Part shown: in pieces, positions 1-1,672 of the stretch
How the letters are laid out: each line of letters begins with the position of its first letter
Position numbering within the stretch: position 1 is the first letter of the stretch
Assembly (NCBI GenBank): GCA_000004985.1
Contig: GG739352.1
DNA length: 1,672 nucleotides
Direction: 5' to 3' (one strand)
DNA from: Naegleria gruberi
Lineage: Eukaryota
Notes under the pieces: generated by a model
Told to the model about the DNA's origin: nothing
The model's input: the letters and a program-made list of their open reading frames with translations, nothing else
Databases searched by the model: none
Made by a program: the position numbers and the translations under genes

Positions 1-11
1 CAAGTTCTCGC

Positions 12-17
12 AATAAA
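12..17 (+). other. AATAAA hexamer, a candidate poly(A) signal, repeated at 1581-1586. It is the only canonical hexamer downstream of the stop codon within the unit.
   Basis: No AATAAA lies between the stop (1404) and the TATA element. The nearest one downstream is at 1581-1586, 177 nt past the stop and beyond the putative promoter. AATAAA is frequent by chance in sequence that is 63% AT. Confidence 0.12.
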
Positions 18-29
18 TCACGGGAAGAT

Positions 30-49
30 AAAAAAAATACGAATCATGG
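30..49 (+). promoter_or_regulatory. A-rich, probably unstructured translation leader (A8 at 30-37) followed by the Kozak-type start context aatcATGg.
   Basis: The sequence is gataaaaaaaatacgaatcATGg, with A at -3 and G at +4 and no GGAGG-like Shine-Dalgarno within 20 nt upstream. This context and spacing are typical of efficient eukaryotic-type initiation. Confidence 0.3.
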
Positions 50-1404
50 TGGATGCAACATTGTCCAAGAAGATACTGCAATCGTTGCACCTTTCTGTGA
101 GACTTGTGAGCCCCTTCCACAACTTGAAAAATAGAAAATTCCAAGTTTTTATTAGTACCCCTTCTGGAATTGATGATAGTAGTATTCAGTTGTTGCATTC
201 GGTTGCTTGCTTGTGTGAACCAAGTAGTGTTATAAGTACGAGAAATAGCAGTCTTGGTGGCAGTGGAAATTTGAGTGATATGTACATTGATCCATTGACA
301 AGAATGGTTACATTTCAAAGTACAATTTCACCGAAAGAAGTGACACAATCTGATGATGGTAAATCACTTTTTATTAAAGTGGGAAATTATGGAAAGAATC
401 CAGGAAGAACACAATTCAAATTCTTGGCTCTCATATTTGAAATCCAGTATCAGAATCAATACTATCAAGCTTACATCACCATTAAAACTCAAAGAGGAAG
501 TGGTGTTGAGCAAAGAGGTTGTACAACCAAAGAATCCTGTTTCATTTCAGATGCTGTTCAAAATGAGGAGGATGAATTCATTCAGGCTTTTTTAAGGTTT
601 AACTCTTTAGGCTCTTCTTTAAGTAATTGTTCAAGTCCAACCAACAGGAGGAGAACACCAAACAGCAAGCCAAACTTTGGAAGTGTCTTTGCAGAGCAAA
701 AATTTGTAAATTTCATGGAAGGCACAACAGATTCTCTTGACAGACTTACTCCTGATATTATTGCTGTTGGACAATCTGACAACTATGATGATGAAATTGA
801 TTATCAAAATTCACTTACTGATTTTTACAATACCATCACATTCACAAAAATCCATTTTGAAAATGGACCAAAACAGGGTGGACAACCAAATACTCTTTAT
901 TTATCATTCAAAGACAGCTCAAAAACTGGATTGTATGAAATGATAAAACACCATTCAATGCAAAGTATCAGTATGTGGTTTGTACCAAAGCATCACCCAG
1001 AAGTTCAGGTAGGTCTTCCACAAATACTTCACATCAGTGAAATTGGAAATTATGCAGCCCTCCATTTTATAACTTCTCCAGTTCTTACACATTTTGAGGG
1101 TGATTTGGATTCTTGTGTTTTCTTGGTTATTGATAATGAAATAATTGATGGACTAGTTGACTATACATTTGTAGACACTTCCAATACTCAATCAAATAAT
1201 CTTCAATTCATAACTTATTATCATCCAGAAGAGAATCTGCAAAGCAATAGATTCATTCAGTACACTGCCCAACAATCATGTGCTCAAGAATCGATCGAAT
1301 TTGTAAATAATTATATTCCAGAAATTAGCCTTTTGAATAATACATGTAAAACTAGGAATATTGGGAGCAAAAAAGATCGCAAGGCATTTGCTGGTAACAC
1401 TTGA
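46..1404 (+). CDS. Hypothetical 452-aa protein rich in S, N, Q and T, with no recognisable catalytic motifs. It is the only substantial ORF of the 1569-bp unit.
   Basis: The frame runs ATG (46-48) to TGA (1402-1404) without interruption. With about 63% AT, roughly 6.8% of random codons would be stops, so 452 stop-free codons have a chance probability near 1e-14. Start context is aatcATGg, with A at -3 and G at +4, which is Kozak-like. There is no purine-rich Shine-Dalgarno upstream. The translation alternates hydrophobic and polar residues in stretches typical of beta-strands (FKFLALIFEIQY, YQAYITIKTQ, VFLVIDNEIIDGLVDYTFVD). It contains one Trp, encoded TGG, and no internal TGA, so the standard code fits. 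I found no Walker A (GxxxxGK[ST]), no GDD, no HUH or Rep motifs, and no transposase DDE signature by eye. Confidence 0.8.
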   Translation: MVDATLSKKILQSLHLSVRLVSPFHNLKNRKFQVFISTPSGIDDSSIQLLHSVACLCEPSSVISTRNSSLGGSGNLSDMYIDPLTRMVTFQSTISPKEVTQSDDGKSLFIKVGNYGKNPGRTQFKFLALIFEIQYQNQYYQAYITIKTQRGSGVEQRGCTTKESCFISDAVQNEEDEFIQAFLRFNSLGSSLSNCSSPTNRRRTPNSKPNFGSVFAEQKFVNFMEGTTDSLDRLTPDIIAVGQSDNYDDEIDYQNSLTDFYNTITFTKIHFENGPKQGGQPNTLYLSFKDSSKTGLYEMIKHHSMQSISMWFVPKHHPEVQVGLPQILHISEIGNYAALHFITSPVLTHFEGDLDSCVFLVIDNEIIDGLVDYTFVDTSNTQSNNLQFITYYHPEENLQSNRFIQYTAQQSCAQESIEFVNNYIPEISLLNNTCKTRNIGSKKDRKAFAGNT

Positions 1405-1506
1405 AGCAATTTTCTTACAAAACTCTAATGTACAGATATCTGACTCTGTTGATTTGAACACAAGCATCAACTTATGTCTTACTAAGAAGATCTAGAAATT
1501 CTCTAC

Positions 1507-1516
1507 TATATAAAAA
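1507..1516 (+). promoter_or_regulatory. TATA-box-like element (tatataaaaa, core TATAAAA at 1509-1515), 106 nt upstream of the ORF start when read across the repeat junction.
   Basis: The motif matches the eukaryotic TATA consensus TATA(A/T)A(A/T) exactly. It is correctly spaced for a transcription start near 1540 and a leader of about 75 nt, given the ATG at 1615 (equivalent to 46). The motif is A/T-only in an AT-rich spacer, so a chance occurrence is plausible. Confidence 0.3.
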
Positions 1517-1569
1517 AGTAGCCTAGAACAGATTGTTTGTGCCCTTCCTCTTATGCTAACATCAACAGT

Positions 1570-1672
1570 CAAGTTCTCGCAATAAATCACGGGAAGATAA
1601 AAAAAATACGAATCATGGTGGATGCAACATTGTCCAAGAAGATACTGCAATCGTTGCACCTTTCTGTGAGAC
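1570..1672. repeat. Right copy of the exact 103-bp terminal direct repeat, identical to 1..103.
   Basis: Same comparison as above. It contains the leader, the ATG and the first 19 codons of the ORF. Confidence 0.97.
1615..1672 (+). CDS. 5' end of a second copy of the same ORF, cut off by the window edge (MVDATLSKKILQSLHLSVR...). On a circular molecule this is the same gene read again.
   Basis: Positions 1615-1672 are identical to 46-103, because they lie inside the exact 103-bp terminal direct repeat. The ATG is at 1615-1617 and the frame stays open to the end of the window. Confidence 0.5.
   Translation, partial: MVDATLSKKILQSLHLSVR

Follow-up and report, generated by a model that had tools for sequence, protein, structure and literature searches.

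A self-overlapping orphan scaffold of Naegleria gruberi with a truncated, mosaic paralogue of a Naegleria-restricted gene family

Introduction

Scaffold GG739352.1 of Naegleria gruberi (assembly GCA_000004985.1) is 1,672 base pairs (bp) long and was analyzed in its entirety; this whole stretch of DNA is called the window below. It carries a single gene, NAEGRDRAFT_60099, and its two ends are identical to each other. The gene product is already listed in the databases as 'predicted protein [Naegleria gruberi]' (XP_002668077.1 = EFC35333.1), and no paper was found when the literature was searched for its locus tags and accessions. The self-overlap of the scaffold, the truncation of its gene and the mosaic relation of this gene to two chromosomal paralogues, NAEGRDRAFT_79322 and NAEGRDRAFT_79332 (below 79322 and 79332), appear not to have been described before. 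Here we present the features of the window and of the gene family to which its gene belongs, together with an interpretation of the gene as a truncated cellular paralogue that may stand head to tail in a chromosomal array.

Features of the window

Positions 1-103 and 1570-1672 of the window are 100% identical and each copy touches a window end, which gives a unit of 1569 bp. A chance origin of an exact match of 103 nucleotides (nt) is negligible, and a repeat search delivered no further notable repeats in the window. The left copy (1-103, plus strand) is a wrap-around consisting of the last 45 nt of the spacer, which form the 5' leader, and the first 19.3 codons of the gene, whereas the right copy (1570-1672, plus strand) either opens the next unit or is a second reading of the same one. 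The N-terminus encoded by the repeat, MVDATLSKKILQSLHLSVR, aligns with the N-termini of the paralogues. Because they contain a start codon and 19 codons with this homology, the terminal 103 nt are gene sequence and do not resemble a long terminal repeat (LTR) or the repeat of a terminal-repeat retrotransposon in miniature. Telomere-type repeats, as expected at both ends of a nanochromosome of the ciliate type, were not found in the window, the ends of which are a direct repeat of gene sequence.

The only open reading frame (ORF) lies at 46-1404 on the plus strand, starts with ATG and encodes 452 amino acids (aa) followed by TGA; its 1359 nt account for 86.6% of the unit. A preliminary description of this DNA had noted both the exact 103-bp redundancy and an ORF filling 87% of a 1569-bp unit, and both observations stand. 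The ORF looks like a real coding frame, since around the circularized unit it remains open for 483 codons, compared with 81 on average and 256 at most among 500 shuffled sequences, and since the guanine plus cytosine (GC) content of codon positions 1, 2 and 3 (41, 36 and 27%) has a periodicity of the coding type. Position 46 is the first start, the open frame upstream of it containing no ATG. The unit length equals 3 x 523, with 483 of the 523 codons open in the ORF frame and in-frame stops confined to the spacer; that the length is an exact multiple of three is probably a coincidence.

The translated ORF is identical to XP_002668077.1, which occurs once in a large protein collection and is encoded on one contig only, with a length of 1672 bp. 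This identifies the window as an entire orphan scaffold from the nuclear genome assembly of N. gruberi NEG-M. This assembly comprises 40.9 Mb in 1977 contigs and 784 scaffolds with a GC content of 35% (PMC6125883), the same value as that of the window.

The spacer (1405-1569, plus strand) together with positions 1-45 gives 210 nt from the stop codon to the next ATG, and must contain the 3' end signals and the promoter. Its secondary structure is not significant (z = -0.40). BglII (1488), EcoRV (1435), ClaI (1290) and HindIII (467) each cut the unit once. In a nucleotide comparison with the orthologous loci of other species (L001-L004) only chance matches of 10 to 15 nt were observed. Intergenic distances in two related loci of Naegleria type, L001 and L004, span 1 to 710 nt (median 131 nt); as 210 nt fall within this range, the spacer is ordinary chromosomal organization for genomes of this type. 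The preliminary description had found it puzzling that the unit leaves no room for a replication gene. With a gene and a spacer of ordinary chromosomal organization no such gene is needed, and the puzzle dissolves.

Protein family

An exhaustive phmmer search over 1.84 billion representative sequences returned three relatives of the window protein, and a profile search added more. The three are 79322 (E = 1.4e-217), an 841-aa protein from an 88-kb eukaryotic contig (P0003; E = 2.3e-08) and XP_044548453 of N. lovaniensis (821 aa; E = 1.2e-06). A word-indexed protein search returned the query alone: it missed paralogues that are 81% identical, one of them with a stretch of 295 residues at 98%, and it missed P0003 although this protein was in the query alignment, so that negative results of this search do not amount to absence.

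Full-length members of the family have 820-1130 aa. N. gruberi possesses two full-length paralogues, 79322 (XP_002678665, 915 aa) and 79332 (XP_002678569, 1133 aa), the genes of which share one scaffold of 507,294 bp; N. fowleri is represented by CAG4717493 (978 aa). The window protein is about 81% identical overall to each of the N. gruberi paralogues over its N-terminal ~431 residues (BLASTP against 79332: 81% over 436 columns). Homologues are located on nuclear contigs of 88 kb, 507 kb and 666 kb, and in the other species the gene occurs as a single copy amid ordinary nuclear genes (ATG5, a kinase, leucine-rich repeat and ankyrin genes). In the HMMER search relatives were found only in Naegleria or in Naegleria-like eukaryotic contigs, the placement in Naegleria being that of the named members from N. 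gruberi, N. lovaniensis and N. fowleri. The 79322/79332 family is cellular, restricted to Naegleria and without an assigned function.

No relative of the window protein above threshold was found in Pfam, PHROGs, NCBIfam or PDB, the latter also searched with the family profile. A Pfam match to Ntox24 scored 16 bits against a cut-off of 24 and was treated as chance, as were sub-threshold matches to PBECR3 and NLRC4_HD2 in 79322. Structure prediction gave a predicted local distance difference test (pLDDT) value of 29.8 from the single sequence and 29.3 from an alignment of five sequences, and the models are meaningless. An internal duplication of the protein, hinted at by the DNA repeats D2/D3, is unsupported; BLASTP of one half against the other gave a best E value of 0.13 over 15 residues.

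Truncation and C-terminal tail

Homology of the window protein to the family is limited to residues 1-431 and ends at ...YIPEISLLN, the alignment stopping at a conserved LN that precedes the NIGQFAKQQ...GFNxAGF segment of the other members. This segment, the linker and the conserved C-terminal domain of about 330 residues (FNCxWN...HY) are absent. The rest of the family architecture gave no match in any frame of positions 1300-1569 plus 1-60, either by tblastn or with a six-frame profile hidden Markov model (HMM), for which all scores were negative. By this homology the window gene is a truncated member of the 79322/79332 family.

Behind the breakpoint follows a tail of 21 codons and a stop at 1339-1404 (plus strand), NTCKTRNIGSKKDRKAFAGNT, which shows no detectable similarity to the family. 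In sequence of 35% GC, 21 or more sense codons in a row have a probability of P = 0.21, and the length of the tail therefore fits a translation that runs past the truncation breakpoint into formerly non-coding DNA, which we infer to be its origin. Two other origins were considered and rejected. The +2 frame past the breakpoint (..AIFLQNSNVQISDSVDL..) resembles by eye a continuation of the family as GFNxAGFLKSNGF, for which the six-frame HMM scores were negative. The tail as the extreme C-terminus of the family, retained after an internal deletion, found no match by tblastn or by the six-frame HMM.

Mosaic relation to the paralogues

The window protein consists of segments that differ in their relation to the two N. 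gruberi paralogues. Residues 1-57 (46-216, plus strand) form an older, diverged N-terminal segment with 62% identity to 79322 and 53% to 79332. In the following tract, residues 58-82 (217-291, plus strand), 24 of 25 residues match 79322 (96%) as compared with 12 of 25 (48%) for 79332. The long tract of residues 83-377 (292-1176, plus strand) matches 79332, with 290 of 295 residues identical (98%) versus 251 of 295 (85%) for 79322. The last part with homology, residues 378-431 (1177-1338, plus strand), is strongly diverged from both (46% to 79322, 39% to 79332, with indels), while the paralogues are 82% identical to each other across the same region. Among the informative sites, 14 consecutive ones follow 79322, and from residue 87 to 376 nearly all follow 79332.

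Sharply segmental identity of this kind is characteristic of paralogues that have undergone gene conversion or recombination, and residues 83-377 are a probable gene-conversion or recombination tract, judging from the alignment. The old diverged flanks (residues 1-57 and 378-431) stand beside a fresh core. Mosaic tracts with diverged flanks indicate that the DNA of the window recombines with the chromosomal paralogues and has done so over a long time.

Search for replicon hallmarks

The preliminary description had pointed to a single-gene circular or tandem replicon, and the window was accordingly scanned for the hallmarks of such elements. Scans against Pfam, PHROGs and NCBIfam revealed neither a replication (Rep) protein with HUH endonuclease and superfamily 3 helicase nor a satellite-specific protein. 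Rfam families were absent on both strands at E <= 1, and hence no ribozyme was detected. The protein is neither a delta antigen nor an Oblin and has cellular paralogues instead. When folded as a circular RNA, the unit has a minimum free energy of -338.6 kcal/mol, versus -339.2 +/- 9.5 kcal/mol for shuffled sequences (z = +0.06), with 60% of the bases paired and a median pair span of 41 nt; there is no rod. The NANTATTAC-type nonanucleotide of stem-loop origins has zero matches, and Pfam and Rfam scans gave no photosystem or respiratory domain and no rRNA as expected of an organellar gene. Searches of viral contigs, metagenome contigs, plasmids and phages yielded no relatives.

Nanovirus components, alpha- and betasatellites, dinoflagellate minicircles, obelisks and deltaviruses thus share with the window only the size and the layout with one ORF. 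The Rep proteins, stem-loop origins, ribozymes, rod-like folds and organellar genes of such small replicons are all absent, and the ORF is a cellular paralogue. The topological part of the earlier claim stands, in that the wrap-around fits a circle or a head-to-tail array; its replicon part is not supported, given the truncated chromosomal paralogy of the gene and the missing hallmarks.

Proposed interpretation as a collapsed tandem array

In the window identical units are joined head to tail, and their identity extends to both ends of the contig. A short repeat between differing neighbors would have been spanned by long reads, and the contig would then continue into unique sequence. Identity that touches both ends is what an overlap assembler produces from reads consistent with a loop, as derived from an array or from a circle. 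The repeated 5' end is too diverged from the N-termini of 79322 and 79332 to stem from them, so there is a second unit of this kind, or at least its beginning.

With moderate confidence we take as the most likely reading that this truncated, gene-converted cellular paralogue belongs to a chromosomal tandem duplication or array of head-to-tail copies, which the assembler collapsed. A segment of 1569 bp, comprising the gene and the 210-nt spacer, would have been tandemly duplicated in the chromosome to give identical units head to tail. The assembler would have collapsed the array to one unit plus an overhang of 103 bp, as all reads would fit a loop, with no read leading out into unique flanks. 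The copy retains its own 5' leader and the N-terminal ~431 codons, is missing the conserved C-terminal half and reads 21 codons into unrelated sequence. Gene conversion or recombination with both full-length paralogues of the 507-kb scaffold has apparently generated the tracts resembling 79322 and 79332. Such a unit would have no replication of its own and would be copied as part of the host DNA.

Collapsed arrays in draft eukaryotic assemblies resemble the window in being reduced to a single unit whose ends overlap and which lacks unique flanks, and tandem gene arrays such as the protein-coding arrays of trypanosomatids, which are fellow Discoba, likewise consist of one gene and a short spacer, head to tail. 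Unlike arrays of the trypanosomatid type, the copies of the unit could number as few as two, no array edge is seen, and the repeated gene is a truncated paralogue instead of a full-length, highly expressed housekeeping gene. With 79322, 79332 and the orthologues of N. lovaniensis and N. fowleri the window shares the N-terminal ~431 residues; it differs from them in lacking the linker and C-terminal domain, in its unrelated tail of 21 residues and in its location on an orphan scaffold that overlaps itself.

Several points weigh against this interpretation. The sequence alone fits a tandem array and a circle equally, and the chromosomal location and the copy number are deductions. The protein is encoded on one contig of the assembly only, so no edge of an array joined to unique sequence is seen. 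The breakpoint and the conversion tracts are defined at the protein level only. The assembly was presumably built in the 2010 genome project from long Sanger shotgun reads with an overlap assembler; the argument that the overlap of 103 nt is not a k-mer artifact depends on reads and an assembler of this type.

Alternative explanations

Extrachromosomal circular DNA (eccDNA) and circular amplicons are known from eukaryotes such as yeast and Leishmania. A circle of 1569 bp might likewise have been excised or amplified from the chromosomal paralogue cluster by recombination and have entered the DNA preparation, to be cloned and then read as a loop by the assembler. Such a circle would be a by-product or amplicon of the host DNA and not autonomous. 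The wrap-around is expected of a circle just as it is of an array, no flanking sequence is attached to the unit, and the protein is found on no other contig of the assembly. Naegleria, moreover, tolerates circular nuclear DNA, as it holds a circular nuclear episome of ~14 kb with ribosomal DNA (rDNA) in ~4000 copies (PMC5805870, PMC13398248). This element, CERE, is the precedent in the genus, and like eccDNA it belongs to the circular nuclear DNAs derived from or coexisting with chromosomes (PMC5805870). CERE carries the rRNA genes and, according to a statement cited in PMC13398248, has in N. gruberi a single mapped replication origin; it is ten times larger than the unit of the window, which fits circularity or tandem repetition alike. 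In the literature found on Naegleria, however, small circles are not reported, and the window contains no structured or origin-like element. Shotgun libraries are made by shearing DNA and cloning the pieces; for a read path to exceed one unit, the template has to be multimeric or tandem. Old divergence beside fresh tracts also points to a long-lived inherited locus, which is easier to maintain in a chromosome than in a circle of 1.6 kb without a recognizable origin. On balance an eccDNA origin seems unlikely.

Slightly more doubtful still is a cloning or assembly artifact, in which the head-to-tail join would not be genomic and the scaffold would be composed of few reads, either from a chimeric clone or through mis-joined reads of similar paralogues. 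A scaffold of 1672 bp could, we infer, consist of just two or three long reads. The stretch that is 98% identical to 79332 takes up about 885 nt of the scaffold, which makes confusion by repeats conceivable, and small leftover scaffolds are common in an assembly with 784 scaffolds (PMC6125883). The terminal repeat encodes the copy's own diverged N-terminus (62% and 53% over residues 1-57), however, so the second 5' end does not come from the known paralogues. That two random fragments of a 41-Mb genome should form a chimera within a single 1.6-kb locus, both in one orientation, is very unlikely unless several copies of the locus exist, and a k-mer overlap of the de Bruijn type is excluded if the assembly followed overlap and layout of long reads.

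A multicopy, stably inherited circle of 1.57 kb in NEG-M, derived from the 79322/79332 cluster, with an intact promoter and a truncated gene for the N-terminal domain, and exchanging sequence with the chromosome, is rather improbable. If it were real, it would be a second nuclear episome in the genus beside the rDNA element, and if stable, it could be used as a natural minimal episome in Naegleria, for which transfection vectors are scarce. Least probable by far is an autonomous or helper-dependent single-gene replicon (a satellite, a DNA like those of circular Rep-encoding single-stranded (CRESS) viruses, an organellar minicircle, or a viroid-, obelisk- or delta-like RNA copied into DNA), as its small size, its circular or tandem topology and its one ORF without a known domain are outweighed by a truncated paralogue whose full-length relatives are chromosomal genes of three or more Naegleria species, two of these genes being the apparent source of recombination tracts, and by the absence of every hallmark tested (Rep, domains, ribozyme, rod fold, spacer structure, NANTATTAC, viral or plasmid relatives).

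An apparent one-gene circle is thus explained by paralogy in the host and the behavior of the assembly, which is a warning against calling small self-overlapping contigs of eukaryotic drafts 'replicons'. The family itself is restricted to Naegleria and expanded in N. gruberi, where its copies bear clear signs of mutual gene conversion at the protein level, and it includes an N-terminal-only derivative that keeps an open frame.

Upstream motifs and other members of the family

A TATA-like element, TATATAAAAAA, is located at 1507-1517, ~98-108 nt ahead of the next ATG, and is a putative TATA box from which the gene might be expressed. In the leader, AATAAA (12-17) is followed by TCACGG (18-23), both on the plus strand and again at 1581-1592; the motif TCACGG, at position -28 relative to the ATG, is ACGT-like. 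Motifs with an ACGT core, (A/C)CGTGA, are clustered upstream of the orthologous gene in L001 (5890-5990) and L004 (5530-5730). In L001 they are located at -106, -42 and -17 of the ATG, and the window has a single copy at -28 (18-23 and 1587-1592). The 150 nt in front of each of the other genes scanned in L001 and L004 did not contain them. The motif may be a family-specific cis-regulatory element, its role being a guess.

The best-conserved part of the family across species is the C-terminal half, which lies outside the window (about residues 600-900 of 79322). It contains the motifs PKLKxALFxAK..FD..T.LI, an invariant-looking FNCxWN...N(S/T)xHY, and KPL...DFFxMDS. This domain, with its Cys/His motif, has no match in Pfam or PDB and has so far been found only in the 79322/79332 family. 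79332 has in addition a C-terminal extension of ~230 residues (about 905-1133) that is lacking in 79322 and the orthologues, and which faintly echoes the N-terminal region of the family, for example in KIHFTN and GQTLTLFLRF. The 79332 gene model may be a fusion with a downstream partial copy, which would imply more truncated copies in the cluster.

In tblastn, residues 14-173 of the window protein align with L004 (PYSW02000022.1) from 5827 (5827-6324), upstream of the annotated start at 6001, and from this alignment the N. lovaniensis model XP_044548453 seems to be shortened at its N-terminus. Its gene spans 2716 nt for 821 aa, which implies one or more introns.

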